This document shows, piece after piece, positions 19,622-62,288 of a stretch of 64,000 nt of DNA. Numbering within the stretch: the first letter of the stretch is position 1; the number at the start of each line of letters is the position of its first letter. Source of the stretch: Octopus sinensis (taxonomy: Eukaryota); the NCBI RefSeq assembly GCF_006345805.1, contig NC_043023.1:12338001-12402000 (forward strand), in the 5' to 3' direction. The notes beneath the pieces were generated by a model. That model had not been told where the DNA came from. It made no database searches and saw only the letters and a program-made list of their open reading frames with translations. The position numbers and the translations under genes are program-made.

Positions 19622-22600
19622 AATAAGTGTCTTCTACTATAGCCCTGAGCTAACTAAACCCTTTTATTTCACATCCACGTAGGGGACGAATCTAAACACA
19701 AAAATGCTCTGAAAGCAACGGGGTTGGGAGAGGCTTTCGGAAAATTCACAAGATCCGATGTTTTTCCCTCGTAACTTTGAGGAAAATATAATCCTTTTGA
19801 AATAACAAATTCAATTTTTCCTCAGGAACTTCTATGCTAAACATCCTTTTGTTAAGGTTCATTCGTTGGTCCCCCTTTCGTTATAACACATGCTGTCAAC
19901 TATAAACACATGAAATATTATCACTAATAATGCTCTCTCGATGCACATACATATTTCTTCTCTGTATTTGTGTGGAATGTAGATAACAAAATCAATGTGG
20001 CAGTTTAAACTTGAGAAAAGCCTTGCATATTTATAATGTCCAAGTTATATAGATGTATGTATGCATTTCTGTGCATGTGTGTGTATGCGGCTAGGGTTCC
20101 TTCTTACCTGCTTCGTTTGTGTATGTAAATTTCTAAGAAGAAAACGAGATCGATGTCAAAAAAGCCGTATTACTGATGATATTTCATTAATTTAGGGCTG
20201 ACAACACGTGCTCTCGTGCTCACTGAAACTAACAAAAGAATCTTGACGAGTCTGAGACTGAAAAACGATTAAATGCCGCTTAACCAAACTGTAGAAGAAC
20301 GAGATGCTGTTGAGCATTTTGTCCGATAAGCAAAGGATTCTTCCTCTAAATAATACACGGTTGACCAGAATCCATGTCTCCCTTGTTCGTTAAATTTATT
20401 TAATATATTATTATTCATTAATACACTTATTAAGAAATAAAATAGTAAATTTAAATAATAAACGAAGCATGCTAGGACAGATGACTAATAATTGAGTCAT
20501 GAATTCTTTCCCTCTCTGTAGGATTATATGAACCCTTCGAAGTTACAGTCATCACATAGAATTAAGAACATAGCAACGTTGAGAAAATATGATTCCTCGT
20601 TTTGGGTATATCAAACATTGGCGATCCTTCGTTATAGGTACCGGAAGTGGCGTTGTTTACATTTTTGAGGATAACAGAAACACTTTTCTCCCACCCCTAA
20701 CACTAACCCCCCATATATATAAAAAAAAACATTTTTTTGAAATGTATCCGGTACCTATACCGAAGTTACTCCCAAATATTGATTTTCTTTTGATTGGCTT
20801 GAGAAAACAAATTTAGGGTGTAGTGCTTGTCATTATGCCAGTCTTTCAATGCCTCAAGGAACTCTGACCCCTAACAACATTTAATAGATGACATTGTTAA
20901 ATTTTGCAACGTTGAATTAGTGTATCATTTAACTATTCTCTTTATCTTGATGTTTCTTTTCCTATTTCAGAATATCACCTTATGTTGACCCACAAGAAAC
21001 TTCTTCATTCAGATGTGCCTTTCATATTTTGACGTTGTTTCATCAACTAAAGCAAGATGACATAATTTATCAGCAGCATTCATCAATACATCAAAATTTA
21101 TATGAATACAATCTAAGAATACAATATTTTTTCTTGTCTTCACTGTTTGGAATGCAGACGAAGTGATTGCCTTACATGTTAATTAAGGTTGGATACCTTT
21201 ACAAACGAGTTGACGATTTTCACCTGCTGATTTAGATATTAATTAAGATCACAGAAGAAAGAAACACAGCTTCAAATTCTTTTCTGGAACTGAAAACAAA
21301 GATGTTTATAGAGATGAAGGAAACATTATTATTGTGATATGTATAATAAATTATTCTGTCATAATGAATAATTCAATTAAACCAAAAGACCCAGATACAA
21401 GAGAGAAACAATATTTCTGTGATATCTGTGGTAAATCATTCTCTCAAAGTTCGAAGGTGACTAGACACAAACGTACACATACAGGAGAAAGGCCTTATCA
21501 TTGTGATATCTGTGATAAATCATTTTCTGACAGCAGTACCTTGACTAAACACAAATATACACACATGGGAGAAAAGCCATTTCAATGTGATATCTGTGGT
21601 AAATCATTCTCTCGCAGTTCAGACGTAACTAGACACAAATGTACACGTGCTGGAGAAAAACCATATCACTGTGATATTTGTGGTAAATCATTTTCTCAAA
21701 ATGGCGATTTAACTCAACACGAACGTACACATACAGGAGAAAAGCCATATCATTGTAATATCTGTGGTAAATCATTCTCTCTAAGGGGTAACTTGACTCA
21801 TCACAAATATACACATACAGGAGAAAAGCTATATCAGTGTGATATTTGTTGTAAATCATTCTCTCAAAGAGGTACCTTGACTGAACACAAACGCACACAT
21901 ATGGGAGAAAGGCCTTATCATTGTGATATCTGTGGTAAATCATTCTCTAAACGTAATGACTTGACTCGCCACAAACTTACACATACAGGAGAAAAGCCAT
22001 ATCATTGTGATATCTGTGGTAAATCATTCCCTCGAAGGAGTAACTTGACTGTACACAATCGTACACATACAGGAGAAAAGCCTTACCACTGTGATATCTG
22101 TGGTAAATCATTCTCTTTTAAGAATACCTTGGCTGAACACAAATATACACATACAGGAGGAAAGCCATATCATTGTGATATCTGTGGTAAATTATTCTCT
22201 CAAAGGAATAGCTTGACTCATCACAAATATACACATACAGGAGAAAAGCCATATCATTGTGATATCTGTGGTAAATCATTCTCTCAAAGAGGTACCTTGA
22301 CTGAACACAAACGCACACATACGGGAGAAAAGCCTTATCATTGTAATATCTGTGATAAATCATTTTCGCATAGGAGTATTTTGACTAGACACAAACGTAC
22401 ACATACAGGAAAAAAGCTATATAATTGTGATATCTGTGATAAATCATTCTCGCGTAGGAGTAGCTTGACTCGGCATGAATATACACATACAGGATAAAAG
22501 CCATACCATTGTGATATCTGTGATGAATCATTTTCTCAAAATTATCATTTAACGAATTTCAGATACATTCATACGAGGGAAAAACCATGTCACTGTGATA

Positions 22601-25600
22601 TCTGTGATAAATCATTCTCTGCAAATTGTGATTTAACTAGTAACAAACGTATTCATTCTGGAGAGAAGCCATTATCATTGTGACACCTGAGGTAAATCAT
22701 TCTCTTGCGAATGTACATTTTCATACCACACAAAATCTACATCATGGTCATATCTATTGTAAATCATTCTCTCATAGACTTAACTGTAAATGAATACATT
22801 CCTACAGAAGAGAAGCCAGGTCAGAGTGACATCTGTGCTAAACCATTCTCTTGAAAAAAGCTACATCCATCCACCTGGGTATTCACAACAATTGTAACTG
22901 TACCAATGCCAGGATTTATTAAAACATTACGACAATGAAGTCTGTTTTGTCAGCTGTCCTTCAGGGTTTTTCCCATCATCAATTTGAATACCGTCAGTGT
23001 GAACGTCAAACCTGTCATAATCTGTAAAAATATTGACTCTGAGTTAACTTGATTGCTAAAAATGCCTGCGTTTGGATTTTGAGGAATTTGCTAGAAAAGA
23101 ATAATGAATAAAAAATCAGAATAAAAGTTAGACCATTTTGTGTTTGTTTTGTTACTCAATATCTGGACACTGTCTCCTCTATACCTTAAATCTCTCGACT
23201 GGCACAATGGCACACCCGTTCAATACTAACTGGCCACCTCCCTGTTGTGGGATTTTTTTGTCACCTGGGGACTTGGTGACCCTTTTGATGCTGATGCTAC
23301 ATGTCCTTACACACTGTTAAAGTACAGGTCTGGAATCCCCAACTCTACGGGGGTGGTCTTGTTATTCAAATGCCTTGTTTCTATTTGCTCCTGAAATTTA
23401 TGTGTAATCTTTTATTCTTTGATGTGTTTCAATCATTTGACTGAGGCCATGCTGGAGCACCTTCTTCAAGGGTGTTAGTGGAAGAAATCGACCTCAAGAC
23501 TTAGTCTTTGTAAGTCTAGTACTAATTTTATTGGTGACTTTTACTAATCCGTAGTTACTGTGAGATAATCACACCAGTACCAATGGTTAAGCCCGTGGCA
23601 GGTGAAAAAAAAAGACACAGACACATACCCAAATACATATAGATATACATTCTGGTGTCTTCTACCTGGGACGTAGCCAGCCCACTTATGCATACCTTTC
23701 CTTCTTGTGACACAAACCCTACTTGTGACGACCTGTTGAGGCAAGTGAAAATCAAAATCGAAATCGATCAACATCAATGGAAATTGTAGCTGTGATACCA
23801 GTGCCAATGGCACGTAAGAGAACGATCCGAACGTGGCCGTTGCCAGCGACGACTCGACTGGCCTCCGTGCCGGTGGCACGTAAAATGCACCATCCGATTG
23901 TGGCCATTGCCAGCCTCGTCTAGCCCCTGTGCCGGTGGTATGTAAAAGGCAGCATCTGACAAAGGCCGGTTGCCAGCCTCGTCTGGCACCTGTGCAGGTG
24001 GCATGTAAAAGGCAGCCACTACACTCACGGAGTGGTTGGCATTAGGAAGGGCATCCAGACGTAGAAACACTGCCTGATCAGACTGGGCCCAGCACAGCCT
24101 TCTGGTTTCCAAGACCCCAGTTGAACTGTCCAACCCATGCGAGCATGGAAAGCGGATGCAAAACAATGATGATGATGATGATGATTTATATATATATATA
24201 TATGTAGTAGCCTAAGGTTGAGTTGAGCTGGCAAAAACGTCAGCACACCGGGGAAATGTATTTCATCTGGTGTTACGTTCTGAGTTCAAATTCCACCGAG
24301 GTCGACTTTGCCTTACATCCTATTGGAGTCGATAAATAAAGTACCAGTTACTCACTGGGGTTGGTGTAGTCGACTTAATCCATGTCCCTGTTTGTCCTCT
24401 CTGTGTTTACCTCTTTGTGGGCGATAAAGAAATAAGAAATCGACCCCAAGACAGGGACATAAACACACCAATACCAGTTGTTAAGCGATGGCTGAGGGAA
24501 AAACAGATACACACATTTATACACATACCCACATATATACATGCATACAAACACACATATATAGTAGCCTAAGTACCCGGCGTTGCCCGGAATTTAAAGG
24601 AATGTTAACCCTTTTGATACCTATTTCTTTACTAAACACAGAGGGGACAGACACACGAATTAAGTCGATTATATCGACACCAGTGCGTAACTGGTACTTA
24701 TTTAATCGACCCCGAAAGGATGAAAGGCAAAGTCGATCTCGGCGGAATTTGAACTCAGAATGTAACGGCTACGCATTTTACCCGGCGTGCTAACGTTTCT
24801 GCCAGCTCACCGCCTTTTGACACCAACCCAGCTGGCAGGCACCCCCTCAAACTCTGTAGTACAAATAAATGTCTTGTTTTAATGAGTTCTGATTTAAAAT
24901 TTTTCATCAAACTTTAGTCACAACTTATGTTCCAACACCAGGTTAATGATAACCACCAAGTTATTTTATGAAGCTGTTTGTTATATTTAAAATTAATTGA
25001 AAGAAACACAGAGCCTCTCAACAGAATTCATCATCGTTTAACGTCTGCTTTCCATGCTAGCATGGGTTGGACGAATGACTGAGGGCTGGCGAACCAAATG
25101 GCTGCACCAAATGTCTTGATATGGCAGAGTTTCTACAGCTGGATGCCCTTCCTAATGCCAACCATTCTGAGAATGTAGTGGGTGCTTTTTACATTATATA
25201 TCATCATTATATATCATGGGTGCTTTTTACATTATATATCATCATTATATATCATCATCATCATCATTTAACGTTTGCTTTCCATGCTAGCATGGGTTGG
25301 ACGAATGACTGAGGTCTGGCGAACCAAATGGCTGCACCAGGCTTCAGTCTTGATCTGGCAGAGTTTCTACAGCTGGATGCCCTTCCTAACGCCAACCACT
25401 CCGAGAGTGTAGTGGGTGCTTTTACATGCAACTGGCACGGGGCCAGTCAGGCGGAACTGGCAACGACCTCGCTTGAATCTTCTAATTATGGTAACAAAAT
25501 TGTTAAAGGAAATGAACGTATTTATTCCGATAAAAAATACATTTTCAGAACAATTCTATCAGATGACATGTGTATAAACAATATCAGGAAAACAAATTTT

Positions 25601-25991
25601 GGAAGCAATCACAGTTTAATTCTGTAGAACTTCTAAATATACAAGGTTTTCAGCAACCACTACATTCTTGAAGTGTTTGGTGTTAGGAAGGGCATCCAGC
25701 TTCCAAGAACTGATTGCAGCCTGGTTCATCTTCGTGAGTTGGCAGTCCTCAGTCAAACCGTCCAACCCATGGAAAGCAGGTGTTAAATGATGATGATACT
25801 ATATATGATATATTGTTATGACATTGAAAGTTTAGGGTGAAATTTGCCAACCATTCGCTGTCTCTCTCTCTCACTCACTCGACACAAAGAAGACACGTGA
25901 TTTCCTCGCCAGAAATTGCAAAGGGAAACTGCTTTAGCGTTTCAAATTTATTCTGCAATCTGGGATTATTATACCTTATATATATTATATT
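19301..25991 (+). repeat. Left arm of near-identical 6.7-kb inverted segmental duplication (partner 38997-45688)
   Basis: Paired coordinates sum to ~64989 throughout (21334/43655, 22497/42492); identical 387-aa ORFs. Confidence 0.95.
21364..22497 (+). CDS. C2H2 zinc-finger protein, 13 fingers
   Basis: ORF 21334-22497 (GTG-called); first in-frame ATG 21364. Acceptor CCTATTTCAG| at 20970; AATAAA at 23107 and 23120. Confidence 0.9.
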
Positions 25992-27364
25992 CAGTGACTC
26001 TAACAGTTATTAAAAGATAATTTTGTTTTAATAATTATACGTTTAGTTGTTTCATACACAAACTAACCGTGTTTTTCCTTTTAGATTAATTGTTAATCCT
26101 TATTTATCTCTCCAATGACTTCGGTATCACTCTAACTTCTCTCAATTTTCAATTTAATGTAATCCACACTCTCTTGAAAACGGGAAAGACAAAGTGAGAG
26201 AGAGTGAGTGACGACGTTCATAAAATATAAAATGTAAAATGTTTTAGTTTTTCTTAAACACGAGATATTGTGTTCAAATTCAGGATGGTTTTGAAAGACA
26301 CTATATTTTATAATCATAGTATATATACTTTCTCACACAACAATTACAATATATTTATTTTAAATCGTTCATCTTTCTCCCCCTCTCTCTCTCACACACA
26401 TTACTTTGGGTGCGAAAGAGTTTTGTTTTTATTTTACGCCCAGTAAAAAAGTGTTTTGTTGAGAGTCAATATTACTTAGTTTGACTTGAAATAAAGGCCG
26501 GGTTATACTGCTAGTGTAAAATAAAGTTTATTATAAACAACACAAACACTTTGTAATTTAATAGATTTCAATGTGATACCTGTTCAATAGAAATTATTTT
26601 TATTTATTAAAAATTTAATTAAATCCAATCAGGAGTAAGTGAAATTCTGCTGAATAAAAACTAAATTGAAAACATTTATCCCTGGCTGTCTCGGCAATAC
26701 TCAAAGGTTTGAGGTGAGAATTTTACATAAGTAGGACACTTTCTTTTAACAAATATCATCTCTGTCAATTACACGGGTGCACAAAGTACCTGGGTGTTTA
26801 CAGTGCTTGTGCATAGTCAAGTGATACCTTTTAGAAAATGATATCAGAATATGGCTTTTCTCTTGTATGTGTATGTTTGTGTTGAGTCAAGTCCAATAAG
26901 AGAATGATTTACTACATATTACAAAGACATGGATTTACTATGTGCCGGTGACACGTAAAAAACACCATTCAAGCGTGACCGTTACCAGCGTCCCCTTACT
27001 GGCACCTGCGCCGGTGGCATGTGTAAAAGATTCGAGCGAGGTCGTTGCCAGTGCCGCCTGACTGGCCCCATGCCAGTTGCACATAAAGGCACCCACTACA
27101 CTCTCAGAGTGGTTGGCGTTAGGAAGGGCATCCAGCTGTAGAATCTCTGCCAGATCAAGATTGAAGCCTGGTGCAGCCACCTGGTTCGCCAGCCCTCAGT
27201 CATTCGTGCAACCCATGCTAGCATGGAAAGCAGACGTTAAATGATGATGATGATGATGTGTATGTTTGTGTTGAGTCAAGTCCTATAAGAGAATGATTTA
27301 ACACAGATATTAGGATATTTCTTTTCTGCTGTATATGTATATATATACATGTATATATAAATAC

Positions 27365-27832
27365 AGATTGGTGAATGCAGTTGTCTTCCCAATAGCAACA
27401 TATGGATGCGAGACCTGGACACTAAAGAAAGCTGACCAGAAGAGAAATAATGCATTCGAGCTTTGGTGTTGGAGAAGACTTTTGCGGATTCCATGGACAG
27501 CGAGGCTCACCAATGGAGAAGTTCTTAAGCAGATCAGGCCGAAAATGTCGATAGAAGCTGGGATCACCAAGCATAGATTGGCATATTTCGGTCATATTAT
27601 GCGGAGAAGATCCCTGGAGAAGAACATCATGCTCGGAATGGTCAGTAGCAAGAGAGGTAGAGGCTGACCAAGAACCCACTGGCTTGACACCATCAAGAGT
27701 GATACCGGAAAGGACATAGCCAATCTGAAAGAAGCGGCCCAGGATAGAACTGACTGGAAAACACTGATTCATCGAGTAACCGAGAGTCGACTTCGACTGA
27801 GCGGATAGTGTGAGAGTATATGTATGTATGTG
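27365..27832 (+). mobile_element. RTE-clade LINE 3' fragment inserted antisense in a ZNF tail
   Basis: Translates PIATYGCETWTL...WRRLLRIPWT...YFGHIMRR...RGRG, the RTE/BovB-type ORF C-terminus. (TATG)-like tail. Confidence 0.9.
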
Positions 27833-27863
27833 TTGAATCAAGTTGCACCCATAAGAGAATGAT

Positions 27864-28330
27864 TTACCACATGTTACAAAGATACGGCTTTACTTTTGCA
27901 TGTGTATACTCGTGTTTAGTCAAGTTACACCTTTTAGAGAAGGACCTACCACAGATATCACGATCATGTGGCTTTTCTTCTGTATGAGTACGTTTATGTT
28001 GAGCCAAGGGACTCCTACACGAAAATGATTTGCCACAGATATCACAACGAAACGGCTCTTCTCCTGTATGTGTACGTTTGTGTTCAGTCAAGGTACTCCT
28101 TCCAGAGAATGATTTACCACAGATACGTTTATGATTAGTCAAACAACGATGTTCAGAAAAGGATTTACCACAGATGTCACAATAAGGCTTCTCTCCTGTA
28201 TGAACACGTTTGTGATGAGTTAAAATGCTATTTTGAGAGAATGATTTACCACAGATATCACAAGGATAAGGCTTTTCTCCTCTATGTGTGTATTTGTGAT
28301 GAGTCAAGTTACACCTTTGAGAGAATGATT
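27864..28330 (-). pseudogene. 5'-truncated ZNF paralog of the 49.7-kb gene, fused to the neighbour's 3' UTR
   Basis: Shares fingers QNSILTH, EHRCLTN, GRSTLTE, CRSPLAQ and KRCNLTK with 49954-51231. Sequence above 28330 is ZNF 3'-UTR. Confidence 0.85.
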
Positions 28331-28952
28331 CTGATATTTTATTCATTATTCTTTTGTAGCAAATTCTTAAAAATCCAAACGCAGGCATCTTTAGCAATCA
28401 AGTTAACTCAGAGTCAATATTTTTACAGATTATGACAGGTTTGACGTTCACACTGACGGTATTCAAATTGATGATGGGAAAAACCCTGAATGACAGCTGA
28501 CAAAACAGACTTCATTGTTGTAATGTTTTAATAAATCCTGGCATTGGTACAGTTACAATTGTTGTGAATACCCGGGTGGATGGATGTAGCTTTTTTCAAG
28601 AGAATGGTTTAGCACAGATGTCACTCTGACCTGGCTTCTCTTCTGTAGGAATGTATTCATTTACAGTTAAGTCTATGAGAGAAGGATTTACAATAGATTT
28701 CACCATGATGTAGATTTTGTGTGGTATGAAAATGTACATTCGCACGAGAATGATTTACCTCAGGTGTCACAATGATAACGGCTTCTCTCCAGCATTAATA
28801 TGTTTGTTACTAGTTAAATCACAATTTGCAGAGAATGATTTGTCACAGATATCACAGCGATATGGTTTTTCCCTCGTATGAATGTATCTGAAATTAGTTA
28901 TATGATAATTTTGAGAAAATGATTTATCACAGATATCACAATGGTATGGCTT

Positions 28953-30944
<1,992 letters not shown>

Positions 30945-32619: not shown

Positions 32620-32770
32620 TGATCAACTTACCCGATCCAGATATAAACAACGAGTCAGCGATCAGTAATTAATCAACGTAATTAAGAATTTAATTGGCGC
32701 GAAGATCAAGTGCTGCTGGAGTTGTTTCCCCTTACATAATTATATTACATGACTTCTATAGATGGCGCTA
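32620..32770 (-). promoter_or_regulatory. CTCF-like motif plus first-exon donor cassette
   Basis: TCTATAGATGGCGCT at 32755-32769; ACTTAC (GTAAGT on minus) at 32626-32631. Confidence 0.5.
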
Positions 32771-34536: not shown

Positions 34537-35082
34537 TTATCCTGTATGTGTATATTCATGCCGAGTCAAGCTACTCCTACGCGAGAATGATTTATCACAG
34601 ATATCACAATTATATAGCTTTTTTCCTGTATGTGTACGTTTGTGTCTAGTCAAAATACTCCTATGCGAAAATGATTTATCACAGATATTACAATGATAAG
34701 GCTTTTCTCCCGTATGTGTGCGTTTGTGTTCAGTCAAGGTACCTCTTTGAGAGAATGATTTACCACAGATATCACAATGATATGGCTTTTCTCCTGTATG
34801 TGTATATTTGTGATGAGTCAAGCTATTCCTTTGAGAGAATGATTTACCACAGATATCACAATGATAAGGCCTTTCTCCCGTATGTGTGCGTTTTTGTTCA
34901 GTCAAGGTACCTCTTTGAGAGAATGATTTACCACAGATATCACAATGATATGGCTTTTCTCCAGTATGGATACGTCTGTGACTAGTCAACTGACTATTAT
35001 AAGCGAATGATTTACCACAGATATCACAGAAACATTGCTTCACTCTTGTATCTGGGTCTTTTGGTTTAATTGAATTATTCAT
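34537..35082 (-). CDS. C2H2 zinc-finger protein, 6 fingers (one His->Gln)
   Basis: ORF 34537-35112; [11 protein letters not shown] at ~35082; acceptor at 35487-35488. Confidence 0.8.
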
Positions 35083-36527: not shown

Positions 36528-36544
36528 CCAAAAAATTAAACATA

Positions 36545-38508: not shown

Positions 38509-38996
38509 AAATTAAGCGTTATTTTCTAAAGGAGTGCCCAAAATAAGTAACAGTACAGCACTGAGGTCCACCGAATCGATCTCCGCCCTCCCGCTAAATT
38601 TTAGCCCTTGTGTCTCAAGTACAAGAGATCATTATCAACATCATCATCATTACTTTATGCAACCCGAAAAAGAAGTCCAGGTCTCAGTGGAAATAGGGCC
38701 GAGGTCGTATTTGCCTTTCATCCTTTTCGAGAAATACTGGGTTCCAGGTATTCGACTTCAGGTTCGCATAAAAGACTTCTGGCCCCGGGGCCAAAATGTG
38801 AAACCATCATCATCATTATCAAAATAACCTTAAAGTAAATCTTCGTCAACTTAATGCTTTATCAATGCCTCATTAACAACGGGACAACGTTAATTAATGT
38901 GGTTTCTTCAATCGGTTTCCTCTCATTTTACTAATTAATTAAGCCGCTTTACCCTCATTTTACCAATTAATTTCCTTTATATGACATGAAACACTT

Positions 38997-41900
38997 AATA
39001 TAATATATATAAGGTATAATAATCCCAGATTGCAGAATAAATTTGAAACGCTAAAGCAGTTTCCCTTTGCAATTTCTGGCGAGGAAATCACGTGTCTTCT
39101 TTGTGTCGAGTGAGTGAGAGAGAGAGACAGCGAATGGTTGGCAAATTTCACCCTAAACTTTCAATGTCATAACAATATATCATATATAGTATCATCATCA
39201 TTTAACACCTGCTTTCCATGGGTTGGACGGTTTGACTGAGGACTGCCAACTCACGAAGATGAACCAGGCTGCAATCAGTTCTTGGAAGCTGGATGCCCTT
39301 CCTAACACCAAACACTTCAAGAATGTAGTGGTTGCTGAAAACCTTGTATATTTAGAAGTTCTACAGAATTAAACTGTGATTGCTTCCAAAATTTGTTTTC
39401 CTGATATTGTTTATACACATGTCATCTGATAGAATTGTTCTGAAAATGTATTTTTTTATCGGAATAAATACGTTCATTTCCTTTAACAATTTTGTTACCA
39501 TAATTAGAAGATTCAAGCGAGGTCGTTGCCAGTTCCGCCTGACTGGCCCCGTGCCAGTTGCATGTAAAAGCACCCACTACACTCTCGGAGTGGTTGGCGT
39601 TAGGAAGGGCATCCAGCTGTAGAAACTCTGCCAGATCAAGACTGAAGCCTGGTGCAGCCATTTGGTTCGCCAGCCCTCAGTCATTCGTCCAACCCATGCT
39701 AGCATGGAAAGCAAACGTTAAATGATGATGATGATGATATATAATGATGATATATAATGTAAAAAGCAACCCATGATATATAATGATGATATATAATGTA
39801 AAAAGCACCCACTACATTCTCAGAATGGTTGGCATTAGGAAGGGCATCCAGCTGTAGAAACTCTGCCATATCAAGACATTTGGTGCAGCCATTTGGTTCG
39901 CCAGCCCTCAGTCATTCGTCCAACCCATGCTAGCATGGAAAGCAGACGTTAAACGATGATGAATTCTGTTGAGAGGCTCTGTGTTTCTTTCAATTAATTT
40001 TAAATATAACAAACAGCTTCATAAAATAACTTGGTGGTTATCATTAACCTGGTGTTGGAACATAAGTTGTGACTAAAGTTTGACGAAAAATTTTAAATCA
40101 GAACTCATTAAAACAAGACATTTATTTGTACTACAGAGTTTGAGGGGGTGCCTGCCAGCTGGGTTGGTGTCAAAAGGCGGTGAGCTGGCAGAAACGTTAG
40201 CACGCCGGGTAAAATGCGTAGCCGTTACATTCTGAGTTCAAATTCCGCCGAGATCGACTTTGCCTTTCATCCTTTCGGGGTCGATTAAATAAGTACCAGT
40301 TACGCACTGGTGTCGATATAATCGACTTAATTCGTGTGTCTGCCCCCTCTGTGTTTAGTAAAGAAATAGGTATCAAAAGGGTTAACATTCCTTTAAATTC
40401 CGGGCAACGCCGGGTACTTAGGCTACTATATATGTGTGTTTGTATGCATGTATATATGTGGGTATGTGTATAAATGTGTGTATCTGTTTTTTCCCTCAGC
40501 CATCGCTTAACAACTGGTATTGGTGTGTTTATGTCCCTGTCTTGGGGTCGATTTCTTATTTCTTTATCGCCCACAAAGAGGTAAACACAGAGAGGACAAA
40601 CAGGGACATGGATTAAGTCGACTACACCAACCCCAGTGAGTAACTGGTACTTTATTTATCGACTCCAATAGGATGTAAGGCAAAGTCGACCTCGGTGGAA
40701 TTTGAACTCAGAACGTAACACCAGATGAAATACATTTCCCCGGTGTGCTGACGTTTTTGCCAGCTCAACTCAACCTTAGGCTACTACATATATATATATA
40801 TATAAATCATCATCATCATCATCATTGTTTTGCATCCGCTTTCCATGCTCGCATGGGTTGGACAGTTCAACTGGGGTCTTGGAAACCAGAAGGCTGTGCT
40901 GGGCCCAGTCTGATCAGGCAGTGTTTCTACGTCTGGATGCCCTTCCTAATGCCAACCACTCCGTGAGTGTAGTGGCTGCCTTTTACATGCCACCTGCACA
41001 GGTGCCAGACGAGGCTGGCAACCGGCCTTTGTCAGATGCTGCCTTTTACATACCACCGGCACAGGGGCTAGACGAGGCTGGCAATGGCCACAATCGGATG
41101 GTGCATTTTACGTGCCACCGGCACGGAGGCCAGTCGAGTCGTCGCTGGCAACGGCCACGTTCGGATCGTTCTCTTACGTGCCATTGGCACTGGTATCACA
41201 GCTACAATTTCCATTGATGTTGATCGATTTCGATTTTGATTTTCACTTGCCTCAACAGGTCGTCACAAGTAGGGTTTGTGTCACAAGAAGGAAAGGTATG
41301 CATAAGTGGGCTGGCTACGTCCCAGGTAGAAGACACCAGAATGTATATCTATATGTATTTGGGTATGTGTCTGTGTCTTTTTTTTTCACCTGCCACGGGC
41401 TTAACCATTGGTACTGGTGTGATTATCTCACAGTAACTACGGATTAGTAAAAGTCACCAATAAAATTAGTACTAGACTTACAAAGACTAAGTCTTGAGGT
41501 CGATTTCTTCCACTAACACCCTTGAAGAAGGTGCTCCAGCATGGCCTCAGTCAAATGATTGAAACACATCAAAGAATAAAAGATTACACATAAATTTCAG
41601 GAGCAAATAGAAACAAGGCATTTGAATAACAAGACCACCCCCGTAGAGTTGGGGATTCCAGACCTGTACTTTAACAGTGTGTAAGGACATGTAGCATCAG
41701 CATCAAAAGGGTCACCAAGTCCCCAGGTGACAAAAAATCCCACAACAGGGAGGTGGCCAGTTAGTATTGAACGGGTGTGCCATTGTGCCAGTCGAGAGAT
41801 TTAAGGTATAGAGGAGACAGTGTCCAGATATTGAGTAACAAAACAAACACAAAATGGTCTAACTTTATTCTGATTTTTTATTCATTATTCTTTTCTAGCA

Positions 41901-44900
41901 AATTCCTCAAAATCCAAACGCAGGCATTTTTAGCAATCAAGTTAACTCAGAGTCAATATTTTTACAGATTATGACAGGTTTGACGTTCACACTGACGGTA
42001 TTCAAATTGATGATGGGAAAAACCCTGAAGGACAGCTGACAAAACAGACTTCATTGTCGTAATGTTTTAATAAATCCTGGCATTGGTACAGTTACAATTG
42101 TTGTGAATACCCAGGTGGATGGATGTAGCTTTTTTCAAGAGAATGGTTTAGCACAGATGTCACTCTGACCTGGCTTCTCTTCTGTAGGAATGTATTCATT
42201 TACAGTTAAGTCTATGAGAGAATGATTTACAATAGATATGACCATGATGTAGATTTTGTGTGGTATGAAAATGTACATTCGCAAGAGAATGATTTACCTC
42301 AGGTGTCACAATGATAATGGCTTCTCTCCAGAATGAATATGTTTGTTACTAGTTAAATCACAATTTGCAGAGAATGATTTATCACAGATATCACAGTGAC
42401 ATGGTTTTTCCCTCGTATGAATGTATCTGAAATTCGTTAAATGATAATTTTGAGAAAATGATTCATCACAGATATCACAATGGTATGGCTTTTATCCTGT
42501 ATGTGTATATTCATGCCGAGTCAAGCTACTCCTACGCGAGAATGATTTATCACAGATATCACAATTATATAGCTTTTTTCCTGTATGTGTACGTTTGTGT
42601 CTAGTCAAAATACTCCTATGCGAAAATGATTTATCACAGATATTACAATGATAAGGCTTTTCTCCCGTATGTGTGCGTTTGTGTTCAGTCAAGGTACCTC
42701 TTTGAGAGAATGATTTACCACAGATATCACAATGATATGGCTTTTCTCCTGTATGTGTATATTTGTGATGAGTCAAGCTATTCCTTTGAGAGAATAATTT
42801 ACCACAGATATCACAATGATATGGCTTTCCTCCTGTATGTGTATATTTGTGTTCAGCCAAGGTATTCTTAAAAGAGAATGATTTACCACAGATATCACAG
42901 TGGTAAGGCTTTTCTCCTGTATGTGTACGATTGTGTACAGTCAAGTTACTCCTTCGAGGGAATGATTTACCACAGATATCACAATGATATGGCTTTTCTC
43001 CTGTATGTGTAAGTTTGTGGCGAGTCAAGTCATTACGTTTAGAGAATGATTTACCACAGATATCACAATGATAAGGCCTTTCTCCCATATGTGTGCGTTT
43101 GTGTTCAGTCAAGGTACCTCTTTGAGAGAATGATTTACAACAAATATCACACTGATATAGCTTTTCTCCTGTATGTGTATATTTGTGATGAGTCAAGTTA
43201 CCCCTTAGAGAGAATGATTTACCACAGATATTACAATGATATGGCTTTTCTCCTGTATGTGTACGTTCGTGTTGAGTTAAATCGCCATTTTGAGAAAATG
43301 ATTTACCACAAATATCACAGTGATATGGTTTTTCTCCAGCACGTGTACATTTGTGTCTAGTTACGTCTGAACTGCGAGAGAATGATTTACCACAGATATC
43401 ACATTGAAATGGCTTTTCTCCCATGTGTGTATATTTGTGTTTAGTCAAGGTACTGCTGTCAGAAAATGATTTATCACAGATATCACAATGATAAGGCCTT
43501 TCTCCTGTATGTGTACGTTTGTGTCTAGTCACCTTCGAACTTTGAGAGAATGATTTACCACAGATATCACAGAAATATTGTTTCTCTCTTGTATCTGGGT
43601 CTTTTGGTTTAATTGAATTATTCATTATGACAGAATAATTTATTATACATATCACAATAATAATGTTTCCTTCATCTCTATAAACATCTTTGTTTTCAGT
43701 TCCAGAAAAGAATTTGAAGCTGTGTTTCTTTCTTCTGTGATCTTAATTAATATCTAAATCAGCAGGTGAAAATCGTCAACTCGTTTGTAAAGGTATCCAA
43801 CCTTAATTAACATGTAAGGCAATCACTTCGTCTGCATTCCAAACAGTGAAGACAAGAAAAAATATTGTATTCTTAGATTGTATTCATATAAATTTTGATG
43901 TATTGATGAATGCTGCTGATAAATTATGTCATCTTGCTTTAGTTGATGAAACAACGTCAAAATATGAAAGGCACATCTGAATGAAGAAGTTTCTTGTGGG
44001 TCAACATAAGGTGATATTCTGAAATAGGAAAAGAAACATCAAGATAAAGAGAATAGTTAAATGATACACTAATTCAACGTTGCAAAATTTAACAATGTCA
44101 TCTATTAAATGTTGTTAGGGGTCAGAGTTCCTTGAGGCATTGAAAGACTGGCATAATGACAAGCACTACACCCTAAATTTGTTTTCTCAAGCCAATCAAA
44201 AGAAAATCAATATTTGGGAGTAACTTCGGTATAGGTACCGGATACATTTCAAAAAAATGTTTTTTTTTATATATATGGGGGGTTAGTGTTAGGGGTGGGA
44301 GAAAAGTGTTTCTGTTATCCTCAAAAATGTAAACAACGCCACTTCCGGTACCTATAACGAAGGATCGCCAATGTTTGATATACCCAAAACGAGGAATCAT
44401 ATTTTCTCAACGTTGCTATGTTCTTAATTCTATGTGATGACTGTAACTTCGAAGGGTTCATATAATCCTACAGAGAGGGAAAGAATTCATGACTCAATTA
44501 TTAGTCATCTGTCCTAGCATGCTTCGTTTATTATTTAAATTTACTATTTTATTTCTTAATAAGTGTATTAATGAATAATAATATATTAAATAAATTTAAC
44601 GAACAAGGGAGACATGGATTCTGGTCAACCGTGTATTATTTAGAGGAAGAATCCTTTGCTTATCGGACAAAATGCTCAACAGCATCTCGTTCTTCTACAG
44701 TTTGGTTAAGCGGCATTTAATCGTTTTTCAGTCTCAGACTCGTCAAGATTCTTTTGTTAGTTTCAGTGAGCACGAGAGCACGTGTTGTCAGCCCTAAATT
44801 AATGAAATATCATCAGTAATACGGCTTTTTTGACATCGATCTCGTTTTCTTCTTAGAAATTTACATACACAAACGAAGCAGGTAAGAAGGAACCCTAGCC

Positions 44901-45688
44901 GCATACACACACATGCACAGAAATGCATACATACATCTATATAACTTGGACATTATAAATATGCAAGGCTTTTCTCAAGTTTAAACTGCCACATTGATTT
45001 TGTTATCTACATTCCACACAAATACAGAGAAGAAATATGTATGTGCATCGAGAGAGCATTATTAGTGATAATATTTCATGTGTTTATAGTTGACAGCATG
45101 TGCTATAACGAAAGGGGGACCAACGAATGAACCTTCACAAAAGGATGTTTAGCATAGAAGTTCGTGAGGAAAAATTGAATTTGTTATTTCAAAAGGATTA
45201 TATTTTCCTCAAAGTTACGAGGGAAAAACATCGGATCTTGTGAATTTTCCGAAAGCCTCTCCCAACCCCGTTGCTTTCAGAGCATTTTTGTGTTTAGATT
45301 CGTCCCCTACGTGGATGTGAAATAAAAGGGTTTAGTTAGCTCAGGGCTATAGTAGAAGACACTTATTGGATCTTTTCGGTTTGAACTATAGTTTTTTCTA
45401 GCAGTGTCATATGAAATTGTCACCCATAATTATGACCCTAGTATCGATCTATTGCATTTCAATCTGTTTTAGGGTTAGGGGTGTGGGAAGGGTATCCTTT
45501 TTTTCTTCAGAAATGTAAATAAACCCAATGTTTCTTAAACGAGGAACATATTCATACGGCACAGAATGTTTGTTTTTTTTACATCAATAGACGTAATTGA
45601 TCGGTTGAAATTGCAGAAATTGAAGAAAAAAAAACAACAAATATCTTACAAACCATAGAATTTTCTCAATTAAAGACAAGAGAAAAAG
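38997..45688 (-). repeat. Right arm of inverted segmental duplication
   Basis: Reverse complement of 19301-25991 with only scattered SNPs and 1-bp indels. Confidence 0.95.
42492..43625 (-). CDS. C2H2 zinc-finger protein, 13 fingers (identical protein to 21364-22497)
   Basis: ORF track shows an identical 387-aa translation; acceptor at 44019-44020. Confidence 0.9.
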
Positions 45689-49674: not shown

Positions 49675-51231
49675 ATGAATTATTCTCTCACAATGAATAA
49701 ATTAACTGAAGCAAAAAACGATGATACAAGAGAGAAACAATGTTTCTGTGATATTTGTGGTACATCATTCAATTATAATAGTCAGTTGACTAGTCACAGA
49801 CATATCCATACTGGAGAAAAACCATATCACTGTGATATATGTGATAAATCATATTCTTTAAGTAGCAACTTAACTTAACACAAACGTACACATACAGGAG
49901 AAAAACCATATCATTGTAATATCTGTGGTAGATCATTCTCTCAAAAGAGCCACTTGACTCATCACAAACATACGCATACAGGTGTAAAGCCATATCATTG
50001 TGATATCTGTAGTAAATCATTCTCTCTAAGGGGTAACTTGACTAACCACAAATATACACATACAGGAGAAAAGTCGTATCATTGTGATATCTGTGGTAAA
50101 TCATTTTCTTTAAGTAGCAACTTAACTCAACACAAATATACACATACTAGAGAAAAGCTATATCATTGTGAAATCTGTGGTAATTCATTCTTTCAAAAGA
50201 GTCACTTGACTCATCACAAATATACACATACAGGAGAAGAGCCATATCATTGCGATATCTGTGGTAAATCATTCTCTCGGAGGTGGAACTTGGATCTGCA
50301 CAAACATACACATACAGAACAAAAGCTATATAATTGTGATATCCGTAGTAAATCATTCTTGTGTAGGACTAACTTGACTAAACACAATCGTACACATACG
50401 GGAGAAAAGCCTTATCATTGTGATATCTGTGGTAAATCATTCTCTCAAAGGAGTAACTTTTCTAATCACAAACGTACACATACAGGAGAAAAACCATATC
50501 CTTGTGATATCTGTGGTAAATCATTCTCTTCAAGGAATACCTTAGCTGAACACAAGTATACACTTATGGGAGAAAAGCCTTATCATTGTGATATCTGTGG
50601 TAAATCATTCTCTTTCAAGAATACCTTGGCTGAACACAAATATACACATACAGGAGAAAAGCCATATCGTTGTGATATCTGTGGTAAATCATTCTCTCAA
50701 AATAGCATTTTAACTCATCACAAACGTGTTCATACAGGAGAGAAGCCTTATCATTGTGACACCTGTGGTAAATCCTTTTCTGAACATCGTTGTTTGACTA
50801 ATCATAAACGTATCTGTGGTAAATCATTCTCTGGAAGGAGTACCTTGACTGAACACAAACGTACACATACAGGAGAAGAGCCGTTTCGTTGTGATATCTG
50901 TGGCAAATCATTTTCGTGTAGGAGTCCCTTGGCTCAACATAAACGTACTCATACAGAAGAAAAGCCATATGATTGTGATATCTGTGGTAGGTCCTTCTCT
51001 AAAAGGTGTAACTTGACTAAACACGAGTGTACACATGCAAAAGTAAAGCCGTATCTTTGTAACATTCTCTTATGGGTGCAACTTGATTCAACACATACAT
51101 ACATATACTCTCACACTATCCGCTCAGTCGAAGTCGACTCTCGGTTACTCGATGAATCAGTGTTTTCCAGTCAGTTCTATCCTGGGCCGCTTCTTTCAGA
51201 TTGGCTATGTCCTTTCCGGTATCACTCTTGA
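49675..51231 (+). pseudogene. C2H2 ZNF gene (~16 fingers, several degenerate) with in-frame TAA in finger 2 and a LINE-derived C-terminus
   Basis: ORFs 49663-49878 and 49954-51231 are in the same frame. TAA at 49876 corresponds to CAA in the sister finger (~50128). Acceptor at 49287. Confidence 0.8.
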
Positions 51232-51560
51232 TGGTGTCAAGCCAGCGGGTTCTTTGTCGGCCTCTTCCTCTCTTGCTACTGACCATTCCGAGCATGATGT
51301 TCTTCTCCAGGGATCTTCTCCGCATAATATGACCGAAATATGCCAATCTATGCTTGGTGATCCCAGCTTCTATCGACATTTTCGGCCTGATCTGCTTAAG
51401 AACTTCTCCATTGGTGAGCCTCGCTGTCCATGGAATCCGCAAAAGTCTTCTCCAACACCAAAACTCGAATGCATTATTTCTCTTCTGGTCAGCTTTCTTT
51501 AGTGTCCAGGTCTCGCATCCATATGTTGCTATTGGGAAGACAACTGCATTCACCAATCTG
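51092..51560 (-). mobile_element. RTE-clade LINE 3' fragment (duplicate of 27365-27832)
   Basis: ORF 51116-51589 translation ending RWLDTIK...DRTDWKTLIHRVTESRLRLSG. Confidence 0.9.
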
Positions 51561-56379: not shown

Positions 56380-57429
56380 TTATCCTGTATGTGTATATTC
56401 ATGCCGAGTCAAGCTACTCCTACGCGAGAATGATTTATCACAGATATCACAATTATATAGCTTTTCTCCTGTATGTGTACGTTTGTGTCTAGTCAAAAGA
56501 CTCCTACGCGAAAATGATTTATCACAGACATTACAATGATAAGGCTTTTCTCCCGTATGTGTGCGTTTGTGTTCAGTCAAGGTACCTCTTTGAGAGAATG
56601 ATTTACCACAGATATCACAATGATATGGCTTTTCTCCTGTATGTGTATATTTGTGATGAGTCAAGGTATTCTTAAAAGAGAATGATTTACCACAGATATC
56701 ACAATGATATGGCTTTTCTCCTGTATGTGTATATTCATGCCGAGTCAAGGTACTCTTTTGAGAGAATGATTTACCACAGATATCACAATGATATGGCTTT
56801 TCTCCTGTATGTGTATATTTGTGATGAGTCAAGCTATTCCTTTGAGAGAATAATTTACCACAGATATCACAATGATATGGCTTTCCTCCTGTATGTGTAT
56901 ATTTGTGTTCAGCCAAGGTATTCTTAAAAGAGAATGATTTACCACAGATATCACAGTGGTAAGGCTTTTCTCCTGTATGTGTACGATTGTGTACAGTCAA
57001 GTTACTCCTTCGAGGGAATGATTTACCACAGATATCACAATGATATGGCTTTTCTCCTGTATGTGTAAGTTTGTGGCGAGTCAAGTCAGTACGTTTAGAG
57101 AATGATTTACCACAGATATCACAATGATATGGTTTTTCTCCAGCATGTGTACATTTGTGTCTAGTTACGTCTGAACTGCGAGAGAATGATTTACCACAGA
57201 TATCACATTGAAATGGCTTTTCTCCCATGTGTGTATATTTGTGTTTAGTCAAGGTACTGCTGTCAGAAAATGATTTATCACAGATATCACAATGATAAGG
57301 CCTTTCTCCTGTATGTGTACGTTTGTGTCTAGTCACCTTCGGACTTTGAGAGAATGATTTACCACAGATATCACAGAAATATTGTTTCTCTCTTGTATCT
57401 GGGTCTTTTGGTTTAATTGAATTATTCAT
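56380..57429 (-). CDS. C2H2 zinc-finger protein, 12 fingers
   Basis: ORF 56380-57459; [11 protein letters not shown] ~57429; acceptor at 57823-57824. Confidence 0.9.
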
Positions 57430-59569
57430 TATGACAGAATAATTTATTATACATATCACAATAATAATGTTTCCTTCATCTCTATAAACATCTTTGTTTT
57501 CAGTTCCAGAAAAGAATTTGAAGCTGTGTTTCTTTCTTCTGTGATCTTAATTAATATCTAAATCAGCAGGTGAAAATCGTCAACTCTTTTGTAAAGGTAT
57601 CCAACCTTAATTAACCTGTAAGGCAATCACTTCGTCAACATTCCAAACAGTGAAGACAAGAAAAAATATTGTATTCTTAGATTGTATTCATATAAATTTT
57701 GATGTATTGATGAATGCTGCTGATAAATTATGTCATCTTGCTTTAGTTGATGAAACGACATCAAAATATGAAAGGCACATCTGAATGAAGAAGTTTCTTG
57801 TGGGTCAACATAAGGTGATATTCTGAAATAGGAAAAGAAACATCAAGATAAAGAGAATAGTTAAATGATACACTAATTCAACGTTGCAAAATTTAACATT
57901 GTCATCCATTAAATGTTTTTAGGGGTCAGAGTTCCTTGAGGCATTGAAAGACTGGCATAATGACAAGCTCTACACCCTAAATTTGTTTTCTCATGCCAAT
58001 CAAAAGAAAATCAATATTTGGGAGCAACTTCGGTATAGGTACCGGATACATTTCAAAAAAATGTTTTTTTTTATATATATGGGGGGTTAGTGTTAGGGGT
58101 GGGAGAAAAGAGTTTCTGTTATCCTCTGAAATGTAAACAAAGCCACTTCCGGTACCTATAACGAAGGATCGTAAATGTTTGATATACCCAAAACGAGGAA
58201 TCATATTTTCTCAACGTTGCTATGTTCTTAATTCTATGTGATGACTGTAACTTTGAAGGGTTCATATAATCCTACAGAGAGGGAAAGAATTCATGACTCA
58301 ATTATTAGTCATCTTTCCTAGCATGCTTCGTTTATTATTTAAATTTACTATTTTATTTCTTAATAAGTGTATTAATGAATAATAATATATTAAATAAATT
58401 TAACGAACAAGGGAGACATGGATTCTGGTCAACCGTGTATTATATAGAGGAAGAATCCTTTGCTTATCGGACAAAATGCTCAACAGCATCTCGTTCTTCT
58501 ACAGTTTGGTTAAGCGGCATTTAATCGTTTTTCAGTCTCAGACTCGTCAAGATTCTTTTGTTAGTTTCAGTGAGCACGAGAGCACGTGTTGTCAGCCCTA
58601 AATTAATGAAATATCATCAGTAATACGGCTTTTTTGACATCGATCTCGTTTTCTTCTTAGAAATTTACATACACAAATGAAGCAGGTAAGAAGGAACCCT
58701 AGCCGCATACACACACATACACAGAAATGCATACATACATCTATATAACTTGGACATTATAAATATGCAAGGCTTTTCTCAAGTTTAAACTGCCACATTG
58801 ATTTTGTTATCTACATTCCACACAAATACAGAGAAGAAATATGTATGTGCATCGAGAGAGCATTATTAGTGATAATATTTCATGTGTTTATAGTTGACAG
58901 CATGTGCTATAACGAAAGGGGGACCAACGAATGAACCTTCACAAAAGGATGTTTAGCATAGAAGTTCGTGAGGAAAAATTGAATTTGTTATTTCAAAAGG
59001 ATTATATTTTCCTCAAAGTTATGAGGGAAAAACATCGGATTTTCCGAAGTCCTCTCCTGACCCCATCGCAAAAGATTTTCCCCACAAATTTCTTTATAAT
59101 CGTGACCTATACCGTTTGAAACGTATTTATATAAAATTTCATTTACAAAAAAAAAGGCTATTTTCCTCAAAGTTACGAGGGAAAACCTTCGGATCTTGTC
59201 AATTTTCCGAAGGCCTCTCACCCTAATTGCTTTCTGCACATTTTTCTCTTCAGATCCCTTTTCTACCCCTTTTTCTTTTATACCCGTTGCACTATTTCTT
59301 TTTCTCGATTTCCTCTCCGGGTAACAACGTCAACCTTACCCTTAAAATATCCTTTATACCCCATGTAACAGTGGATTCTAGGTTCCCATAAACCACAGAT
59401 CAACATTTCAGTTTGGAAGTTCTTCAGACCAACAAATCTATTTTCCTAATTGTTGTCAGGTTCCCGTTTCCAAATAATTACTCAAACATCCAGAGAAGTT
59501 CACAGAAATCTATTATCTTCCATTATCATTAGTAGTATTATTATCATGATTACAGCCTTAAAGGAAATC

Positions 59570-59725
59570 TTGATCAACTTACCCGATCCAGATATAAACA
59601 ACGAGTCAGTGATCAGTAATTAATCAACGTAATTAAGAATTTAATTGGCGCGAAGATCAAGTGCTGCTGGAGTTGTTTCCCCTTACATAATTATATTACA
59701 TGACTTCTCCTATAGATGGCGCTAC
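59570..59725 (-). promoter_or_regulatory. CTCF-like motif plus first-exon donor cassette
   Basis: CCTATAGATGGCGCT at 59709-59723; ACTTAC at 59577-59582. Confidence 0.5.
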
Positions 59726-61304
59726 TCACTGGGGTCAATTTTGATTCTTTCACCCGCAAAATTTTCAATGAGAAAAAAAAAAAATTACGGGTTTTTTACA
59801 GGGTATCAAATATCCTGACCCTTAATATGCTGCAAACCCATCATTTTTGCTCGGAAAAAAGGGTTGGGTGAGAAACTACACCCCATCCCGGAATCACTTG
59901 AATTTTTTTCTTTTTATTGAATGAATTCTGGTGACCTCTTATTATTCCACAAAACCTCTTTCTTTGTGGTTCGGAAGACGGGATGGGGTCTGGTGGAAGC
60001 CTCAGAAATGTCAGCCAACCCGCCACACCAATATTTTTCGCTGTTTCTTTCTCTACCCATTTTTTTTAGATAACATTTGGCAGAAATGTTTTCAAGAGGG
60101 TGTGGATTACATTAAATTGAAAATTGAAAGAAGTTTGAAATAAATAAGTGAAAAATGCAGAACTTATAGAAGTTCGAGTGGTACCGAAGTCAGTGGAGAG
60201 ATAAATAAGGATAAATAATTAATCTAAAGAGAAATGCACGTTAGTTTGTGTATGAAACAACTGAACGTATAATATAAAAATACACATGTAAACACATATA
60301 TATAATATATATAGATATATAAATCAGTAGGAGACTTAGTATCGGCCCTTGCCTTTCCCTTGGATAACACTGGTGACGTGGAGAGGAGAGGCTGGTATGC
60401 ATGGGCGACTGCTGGTCTTCCATAAAGACAACCTTGCCCAGACTTGTGCCGCAGAGGGGAACTCTCAAAGTGCAAGCCCATGGTCAGTGTCTGACCGAAG
60501 AGGGTCTCACACACACAGACTAGACTCACAAAAGACTAGGTCTTGGGACTGATTTCTGCCACTAACACCCTTGAAGGTGGTACTCCAGCATGGCCTCAGT
60601 CAAATGACTGAAACAAGTAAAAGACTATGGAAACAAGGCATTTGAATAACACAGTTAATAGCAGCCCTTTAACAGTGTGTAAGGACATGTAACATCAGCA
60701 TCAAAAGGGTCACCAAGTCCCCAGGTGACAAAAAAATCCCACAACAAGGAGGTGGCCAGTTAGTATTGAACGGGTGTGCCATTGTGCCAGTTGAGAGATT
60801 TAAGGTATAGAGGAGACAGGTCCAGATATTGAGTAACAAAACAAAGACAAAATGGTCTAACTTTTATTCTGATTTTTTATTCATTATTCTTTTCTAGCAA
60901 ATTCCTCAAAATCCAAACACAGGCATTTTTAGCAATCAAGTTAACTCAGAGTCAATATTTTCACAGATTATGACAGGTTTGAGTTTCACACTGATGGTAT
61001 TCAAATTGATGATGGGAAAAACCCTGAATGACAGCTGACAAAACAGACTTCATTGTTGTAATGTTTTAATAAATCCTGGCATTGGTACAGTTACAATTGT
61101 TGTGAATACCCAGGTGGATGGATGTAGCTTTTTTCAAGAGAATGGTTTAGCACAGATGTCACTCTGACCTGGCTTCTCTCCTGTAGGAATGTATTCATTT
61201 ACAGTTAAGTCTATGAGAGAAGGATTTACAATAGATTTGACCATGATGTAGATTTTGTGTGGTATGAAAATGTACATTTGCAAGAGAATGATTTACCTCA
61301 GGTG

Positions 61305-62288
61305 TCACAATGATAATGGCTTTTCTCCAGCATGAATACGTTTGTTACTAGTTAAATCACAATTTGCAGAGAATGATTTATCACAGATATCACAATTATA
61401 TAGCTTTTCTCCTGTATGTGTATATTCATGCCGAGTCAAGGTACTCTTTTGAGAGAATGATTTACCACAGATATCACAATGATAAGGTTTTTCTCCTGTA
61501 TGTGTATATTTGTGATGAGTCAAGCTATTCCTTTGAGAGAATAATTTACCACAGATATCACAATGATATGGCTTTCCTCCTGTATGTGTATATTTGTGTT
61601 CAGCCAAGGTATTCTTAAAAGAGAATGATTTACCACAGATATCACAGTGGTAAGGCTTTTCTCCTGTATGTGTACGATTGTGTACAGACAAGTTACTCCT
61701 TCGAGAGAATGATTTACCACAAATATCACAATGATATGGCTTTTCTCCTGTATGTGTAAGTTTGTGGCGAGTCAAGTCATTACGTTTAGAGAATGATTTA
61801 CCACAGATATCACAATGATAAGGCCTTTCTCCCGTATGTGTGCGTTTGTGTTCAGTCAAGGCACCTCTTTGAGAGAATGATTTACAACAAATATCACACT
61901 GATATAGCTTTTCTCCTGTATGTGTATATTTGTGATGAGTCAAGTTACTACTTTCAGAGAATGATTTACCACAGATATTACAATGATAAGGCTTTTCTCC
62001 TGTATGTGTATATTTGTGATGAGTCAATTTACTCATTTGAGAGAATGATTTACCACAGATATCACATTGAAATGGCTTTTCTCCCATGTGTGTATATTTG
62101 TGTTTAGTCAAGATACTGCTGTCAGAAAATGATTTATCGCAGATATCACAATGATAAGGCCTTTCTCCTGTATGTGTACGTTTGTGTCTAGGCACCTTCG
62201 AACTTTGAGAGAATGATTTACCACAGATATCACAGAAATATTGTTTCTCTCTTGTATCTGGGTCTTTTGGTTTAATTGAATTATTCAT
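61305..62288 (-). CDS. C2H2 zinc-finger protein, 10 fingers plus 1 degenerate finger
   Basis: ORF 61305-62318; ends SANCDLTSNKRIHAGEKPLSL; acceptor at 62682-62683. Confidence 0.88.
   Translation of the reverse strand: MNNSIKPKDPDTREKQYFCDICGKSFSQSSKVPRHKRTHTGERPYHCDICDKSFSDSSILTKHKYTHMGEKPFQCDICGKSFSQMSKLTHHKYTHTGEKPYHCNICGKSFSESSNLTHHKYTHTGEKLYQCDICCKSFSQRGALTEHKRTHTGERPYHCDICGKSFSKRNDLTRHKLTHTGEKPYHCDICGKSFSRRSNLSVHNRTHTGEKPYHCDICGKSFSFKNTLAEHKYTHTGGKPYHCDICGKLFSQRNSLTHHKYTHTGEKPYHCDICGKSFSQKSTLTRHEYTHTGEKLYNCDICDKSFSANCDLTSNKRIHAGEKPLSL

Follow-up and report, generated by a model that had tools for sequence, protein, structure and literature searches.

A young octopus cluster of finger-only C2H2 genes with arrays probably remodelled by out-of-register recombination

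The expansion of C2H2 zinc-finger genes in coleoid cephalopods was reportedly described by Albertin in 2015. In the available parts of two papers on coleoid C2H2 genes (PMC9068888, PMC12513265) the expansion is treated at the gene level, as a large, clustered, lineage-specific poly-finger family. The family analysed here consists likewise of clustered, lineage-specific paralogs (at least 25 copies), and finger-level mosaics are described for it below. The available text of PMC12513265 calls the diversification of the huge cephalopod C2H2 repertoire elusive and never uses the words recombination, gene conversion or shuffling. A study of finger-level recombination in cephalopod zinc-finger genes was not found in the open literature.

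The PRDM9 minisatellite, as far as the available part of its description goes (PMC5519329), shares with the present arrays an 84-nt unit, variation concentrated at helix positions -1 to +6, gain and loss of units and the occurrence of hybrids. However, the arrays described here belong to a multi-gene family with units about 81% alike, and positions -1, 2, 3 and 6 hold a 0.36-0.39 share of the amino-acid diversity, compared to 0.69-0.91 in PRDM9 (human 0.687, mouse 0.910; Baker 2017, PMC5519329, in the part available), where the site set may not be -1, 2, 3 and 6. A likeness to PRDM9, drawn in a first-pass annotation of this DNA, therefore failed on homogenisation (units 0.79-0.82 alike) as well as on domains, SET, KRAB and SSXRD being absent. 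The likeness to KRAB-ZNF clusters drawn in the same place stood with respect to array plasticity among young paralogs, but not with respect to the KRAB domain. The same plasticity is in print for mouse KRAB clusters (Kauzlaric 2017, PMC5363842, in the part available). In contrast to the mouse KRAB-ZFP clusters, as described in the available parts of PMC5363842 and of Bruno 2025 (PMC12575710), there is no KRAB exon here. Thus, as far as its DNA is concerned the cluster behaves like a young KRAB cluster, and it is a member of neither the KRAB nor the PRDM9 group. It also differs from the zebrafish FiNZ-ZNFs (Wells, bioRxiv 10.1101/2022.11.29.518450, in the part available) in that no N-terminal domain exists beyond 16 residues and in that positive selection is only suggested.

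Tandem finger arrays would be expected to undergo out-of-register exchange, which has been published for the mouse, so the cluster is a good example and should not surprise a specialist. Because the cluster is young, single events are visible at base resolution, among them deleted blocks, hybrid helices, swapped gene ends and an in-frame gene fusion, which makes rates and targets testable. The finger-only architecture raises the question of how such proteins would act.

The finger genes of the window and their relatives

The window, that is the whole 64,000-nt stretch analysed, corresponds to C27:12338001-12402000 of a 2.72-Gb genome. A tandem-repeat search confirmed the 84-bp module period claimed previously and located period-84 repeats at 14.0-14.8, 21.4-22.7, 27.9-28.3, 28.7-30.8, 34.3-35.0, 42.3-43.6, 49.7-51.1, 56.2-57.4 and 61.3-62.2 kb. 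Every such block in the window is an ORF of C2H2 fingers. The units have the Kruppel-type form (CxxC-x12-HxxxH, TGEKP-type linkers, 28-aa period), in a finger style that we take to be that of octopus C2H2 genes.

The genes g21, g56, g61 and g34 have a common ORF layout, consisting of a 16-residue leader, fingers and a stop within a linker (377, 349, 327 and 181 aa, respectively). In g21 (21364..22497, plus strand) the leader is followed by 13 finger units, 12 of them canonical, with unit 3 lacking its last His; the stop lies in the linker after RRSS and the two degenerate units that follow are 3' UTR. The ORF of g56 (56380..57429, minus strand) contains 12 canonical fingers, that of g61 (61305..62288, minus strand) 10, and that of g34 (34537..35082, minus strand) 6 units, 5 of them canonical and unit 2 without its first His. 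In most copies two or three degenerate units (QNYH, ANCD, CECT) are kept after the stop (22498-22700 and equivalents). Deletions in g61 and in a C15 copy restore these units to the reading frame; in g61 the deletion comprises two units and thereby removes the usual stop codon.

A further gene, g42 (42492..43625, minus strand), has a coding sequence identical to that of g21. The two genes occupy opposite arms of an inverted duplication of 6.7 kb (19301..25996, plus, and 38992..45688, minus); the arms are 99.8% identical over 6,699 aligned columns, with 8 mismatches and 5 one-base gaps. The 21k and 42k genes, previously counted as separate arrangements, are thus one, leaving four arrangements and not five. 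Three of the 8 substitutions between the arms fall within 62 nt (19825-19886). At each of these the 42k arm has the letter of g56, as would follow either from a short tract of conversion or from an artefact of polishing. Several of the differences between the arms agree with alleles of other paralogs, a pattern compatible with conversion and with cross-polishing. Shared blocks in the window show that genes were duplicated together with their flanks (22711-27861 vs 56166-51063, 96.5%; 31950-34319 vs 58900-61273, 98.1%).

The five genes listed in the first-pass annotation were given correctly, but two loci in the same range had been omitted. One of them, g30 (28953..30827, minus strand), is a frameshifted member of the young family with tandem QRFD/SRNT repeats and a frame disrupted by four units of 76-83 nt; it is either a pseudogene or a consensus error. 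The other, g49 (49693..51060, plus strand), belongs to a sister subfamily with a different leader and a different 3' tail, and has an in-frame stop in finger 2. A 3' remnant of a g49-type array (27864..28330, minus strand) abuts the 3' flank of g30 directly. The older paralog g14 (13978..14700, plus strand) has a 5' flank 75% alike, and its 3' half is 99.6% identical to a chimeric copy outside the window, which is described below. Directly after the g49-type 3' end, and duplicated along with it, lies an ORF (51116-51610, also 27314-27667 on the minus strand) which gave 0 families in a Pfam search and presumably resembles the C-terminal region of a LINE reverse transcriptase.

A genome search with the 5' UTR and leader, in which 40 of 306 candidates were scored, yielded at least 25 copies whose 5' part is ≥85% alike. 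Of these, 20 are on C27 between 11.25 and 12.45 Mb, a span of 1.2 Mb, or 21 if one at 11.998 Mb is included; 2-3 are on C15 or elsewhere, and 2 on C2. The young-family copies at G000:C15:50636019, C15:50651059, C2:184383073 and C2:184395137 occur in pairs on these two other large contigs and are 85-91% alike in the 5' part. Among the 21 copies with a scored ATG, 20 distinct fingerprint arrays were found, truncated ORFs counted. Two minus-strand copies (G000:C27:11432046 and 11392161; L041 and L036) have within their array a second start codon and leader, fused in frame behind the last His of a finger. Here one entire gene has been joined onto another array, apparently at a short microhomology. 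A third locus (L040, G000:C27:11423881-11425644) has 14 tandem CRSN fingers, 13 of them protein-identical, with a stop in unit 3. The broken copies g30, g49, h65 and k423 fit the pattern of birth-and-death families, and many copies of the family may be short-lived.

Order of the fingers and exchange between arrays

Leaders and UTRs are nearly identical, as had been claimed: among the five genes, 520 nt on the 5' side are 96.9-100% and 520 nt on the 3' side 97.5-100% identical. Across the young cluster in the window, flanks are 93-100% alike. With helices written as residues -1, +1, +2 and +3, the array of 21k/42k reads QSSK, DSST, RSSD, QNGD, LRGN, QRGT, KRND, RRSN, FKNT, QRNS, QRGT, HRSI, RRSS; that of 56k reads QSPK, DSST, RSSD, KRTD, RRSN, FKNT, QRNS, QKST, FKNT, QRGT, RRSL, RRSS; and that of 61k reads QSSK, DSSI, QMSK, ESSN, QRGA, KRND, RRSN, FKNT, QRNS, QKST. 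These lists agree exactly with those of the first-pass annotation, and so does the 34k list, but the degenerate last unit of 61k had been left out there.

The accompanying claim that the order of the helices differs was not upheld. In the comparison of the four distinct genes (g21, g56, g61 and g34), every one of the 46 units that match at ≤4 nt is collinear (38/38 at ≤2 nt and 51/53 at ≤6 nt), as are 269 of the 281 among 18 arrays. The arrays differ by whole multiples of 84 nt. What sets them apart is the deletion or duplication of blocks, together with hybrids and point changes, so that blocks are missing, doubled or replaced. Since events of this kind excise and rejoin blocks without permuting them, most of the order survives. 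Hence the term 'combinatorial shuffling' overstated the reordering of units that stay collinear, although recombination itself is well supported. A copying model left 11 mismatches over the 1,260 nt of g56 and 6 over the 756 nt of g34, one jump in each being a mere frame offset at the last unit. Along its path g56 lacks g21 units 4-6, has QKST in common with g61, and passes through a hybrid unit with the helix FKNTLTH into the g21 tail. In g34 the path leads from the start of the KRND unit straight into QRNS. Fingers clustered by type and not by gene: 57 of 68 units were nearest to another array, 3 to their own array and 8 were ties, with g42 omitted and g30 entered as two arrays. Such grouping is also expected from duplication alone.

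Clean single-crossover hybrids were found in 9 of 258 units, compared to a mean of 0.9 and a maximum of 4 in 100 codon-order shuffles. The excess is weak in the four genes alone (2/48 units, a number reached by 4/100 shuffles). The proposal that FKNTLTH in g56 combines FKNTLAE and QRNSLTH was borne out. The unit (g56.9, 56629..56712, minus strand) is a QRNSLTH unit with an FKNTLAE tract, the 13 differing sites reading J,J,J / I x6 / J x4 with no third base. The tract runs from unit nt 9-28 to nt 47-50, and the switch falls between helix +3 and +5, for which one conversion tract ending within the helix would be the simplest explanation. Another hybrid, g61.11 (61320..61403, minus strand), joins the 5' part of an RRSS unit to the 3' part of an ANCD unit with 0 mismatches and a switch at nt 9-35.

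Exchange had been proposed to run specifically through the conserved linker. In fact, 6/9 hybrids change parent within the Cys-hairpin/KSFS stretch (unit nt 9-41), 2/9 in the helix (37-56, 42-46) and 1/9 near the last His (67-73), a count that is biased against the linker because crossovers at unit borders leave no hybrid. Out-of-register units of g21 share 41 perfect runs of 20-52 nt, located in the linker and above all in the Cys hairpin and KSFS, hardly in the helix, and most switch points lie there. The linker is not special for exchange.

That paralogs underwent unequal crossover or conversion, both internally and with one another, as suggested at the outset, is supported by these hybrid units and further by discordant flanks and a chimera. 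Because the flank trees were poorly resolved (4/14 and 0/8 inner branches starred), informative sites were counted in their place. In the 5' flank of the four genes (630 columns), 3/3 informative sites pair g56 with g61. In the 3' flank (752 columns), 28/28 pair g56 with g21 and g61 with g34, so that g56 is g61-like upstream and g21-like downstream, while g61 is g56-like upstream and g34-like downstream. The discordance is significant with all 28 3' sites (Fisher p 2.2e-4) and with only the 8 outside a divergent tail that contains 20/28 (p 0.006). The chimera at G000:C27:12411231, outside the window, is 97.6% identical to g21 and 75.5% to g14 at its 5' end, and 99.6% to g14 and 61.0% to g21 at its 3' end; the copying model places the switch in unit 6, nt 9-33. 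Likewise, h65 and h90/g49 have a common 5' type (98.5%) and unrelated tails, and k423 and k432 have common first fingers and unrelated tails. Given a correct assembly, these arrangements would reflect recombination between genes, with crossover and conversion indistinguishable from one assembly and the direction and order of events unrooted.

Gene structure and selection on finger codons

That no effector domain is visible, as stated in the first-pass annotation, was supported by Pfam searches and by gene structure. PF00096 and PF13465 were above cut-off in 4/4 ORFs and only finger-type families were reported; SET, KRAB and SSXRD were not found in the 4 ORFs, and neither was PF01352 (KRAB), for two ORFs among the best 25 of 27 and of 31 families. 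An in-frame stop lies about 40 codons upstream of the ATG, and a splice acceptor lies upstream of that stop. The 40 open codons before the ATG are not taken to be coding, since a 1-nt deletion there in two copies marks this stretch as UTR. The intron upstream of g56 (57823..58408, minus strand; 586 nt, GT-AG) is seen in one short-read contig that joins 58409 to 57822 with 28 letters on the short side, and in a second contig joint that uses the same acceptor; this splice evidence comes from one run (X12) of unrecorded kind, and the contig may derive from a paralog. The finger exon of g56 begins at this acceptor, 393 nt upstream of the ATG, has in-frame stops within that stretch, and itself carries 5' UTR, ATG and stop. 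Because an in-frame stop lies between acceptor and ATG, the spliced isoform cannot take up an in-frame effector exon. The isoform with the upstream acceptor is finger-only; an alternative acceptor is conceivable. Further upstream, an element at 59346..59732 (minus strand) recurs in shared blocks upstream of several copies, and contig pieces end at 59346; it is likely a promoter with a non-coding first exon.

An exact look-up of 5 translations in a protein collection matched 0/5. A homolog search with g21 residues 1-110 gave 4,373 matches, the best 120 of which are generic long zinc-finger proteins at 47-61% identity, one of them from cuttlefish. With no close relative among these best 120, arrays were not compared across species.

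Substitution at positions -1, 2, 3 and 6 was compared with the framework. A first run had used canonical fingers only, which biases framework omega down, and was repeated without this filter on 12 genes. Framework omega was 0.35-0.39 (coding units, 12 genes; p≤5e-4, this and the following p-values being indicative only as they ignore recombination), and 0.48-0.52 in the four genes alone, where it was not significant. The constraint on framework codons indicates that protein is made by the family taken as a whole. At contact codons the rate of change is about three to five times that of the framework (p≤0.006 for each of four sets). Relative to all synonymous sites, contact omega was 0.93-1.33 in the 18-array set, and 1.31, 1.67 and 1.76 in the 12 genes at edge limits of 3, 4 and 6 nt (p 0.25, 0.037 and 0.001). 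In the four genes it was 1.69-2.71, on 6-17.5 changes. Over all pairs of the family-wide analysis, pN/pS within contact codons was 1.01-1.08. The check proposed earlier for these four positions thus gave contact codons faster than framework codons, but significance only on longer edges. Since recombinant units inflate longer edges, the values indicate relaxed to weakly positive selection and amount to no demonstration; positive selection on contact codons is only suggested.

Assembly, proposed mechanism and rival explanations

The assembly of g56 was compared with DNA contigs of 4 runs, which break at every conserved stretch, none of them spanning an array. Pieces over the unit 3/4 junction have 1-2 other letters and may be g21-type copies, so the deletion in g56 is neither confirmed nor refuted by them; the hybrid unit g56.9 is spanned by none of the contig pieces listed. 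Two g56 variants are absent from the contigs of X2 and X4 (56499 and 57089) and of X8 (57089), which makes them private alleles or consensus errors. By word share, the family was detected in short-read contigs of three organisms and nine studies. Contigs of four probable RNA runs cover UTR parts, finger order being beyond their reach. Consensus errors seem to account for the short units of g30 and for the single-base gaps that separate the two inverted arms.

Our preferred reading, to which we assign a probability of roughly 0.8, is a young cluster of duplicated leader-plus-finger genes whose arrays were remodelled by out-of-register homologous recombination within and between copies, which would give each copy its own DNA-binding code. 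Directly visible are the duplication of entire gene units, both segmental and inverted, as well as mosaic units, discordant flanks and framework constraint. The 84-nt units, with their long identical runs of His, linker, hairpin and KSFS, would mispair, and a crossover in a mispaired stretch would delete or double whole fingers in frame. A crossover between paralogs would swap gene ends, and one inside a helix would create a new fingerprint. Judging from the changed contact residues, new DNA-binding specificities may have arisen, and the proteins would bind DNA, plausibly repeats or transposons, acting without a fused effector. A more far-reaching version, which we consider doubtful, is an effector-less, recombination-driven recognition repertoire, in which some two dozen genes made of fingers alone would exchange helix modules and whole gene ends so rapidly that individuals differ in their fingerprint sets, with selection for new contacts against young transposons. 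If true, this would be KRAB-like genome defence in a mollusc, with no fused repressor domain needed.

Plain duplication with point mutation and deletion or slippage within each gene, but no exchange between paralogs, would be in line with the collinearity within both array sets and with the grouping by finger type, which follows from duplication alone. The shape of g34, the loss of g21 units 4-6 from g56 and g61.11 would then be simple intragenic deletions. However, the discordant flanks are inexplicable on this account, as is the 12411231 chimera with its 75% and 99.6% ends, and we regard it as unlikely. Artefacts of assembly or polishing could also have produced the mosaics and the 21k/42k pair, through wrongly joined haplotypes or paralogs and through cross-mapping of short reads. 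The four 76-83 nt units of g30 amid near-identical repeats, the 5 arm gaps, all single bases in homopolymer or short runs, and the g56 variants missing from independent contigs point in this direction, and so do the arm differences equal to other paralogs' alleles, as cross-polishing would give. Yet the arrays measure merely 0.5-1.3 kb and each sits in its own flanking arrangement; most frames are intact and differences are whole units. Errors do not produce a deficit of nonsynonymous relative to synonymous change in the framework, and a collapse lowers, not raises, the number of distinct arrays. Such an artefact is decidedly unlikely as an account of the family.

A PRDM9-like system, with homogenised fingers, strong positive selection on contacts and a role in directing recombination or chromatin marks, appears highly improbable. 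It would be consistent with the faster change of contact codons in all four sets, with the contact omega of the 12 genes at the 4- and 6-nt edges and with the homogenised runs of a few copies (g30, k423). It is at odds with the absence of SET, KRAB and SSXRD from the ORFs, with the unit identity within a gene and the diversity share given above, and with a contact omega that spans 1 among the 18 arrays and is not significant at the 3-nt limit, longer edges being inflated by recombinant units.

Two other repeats were observed in the window. A 3.2-kb compound (GT)n-TATT microsatellite array with a period of 23-25 (9358-12580) yields spurious long ORFs, and a 97-nt unit is repeated in 5.5 copies at 97% (7825-8355), with a telomere-like end.
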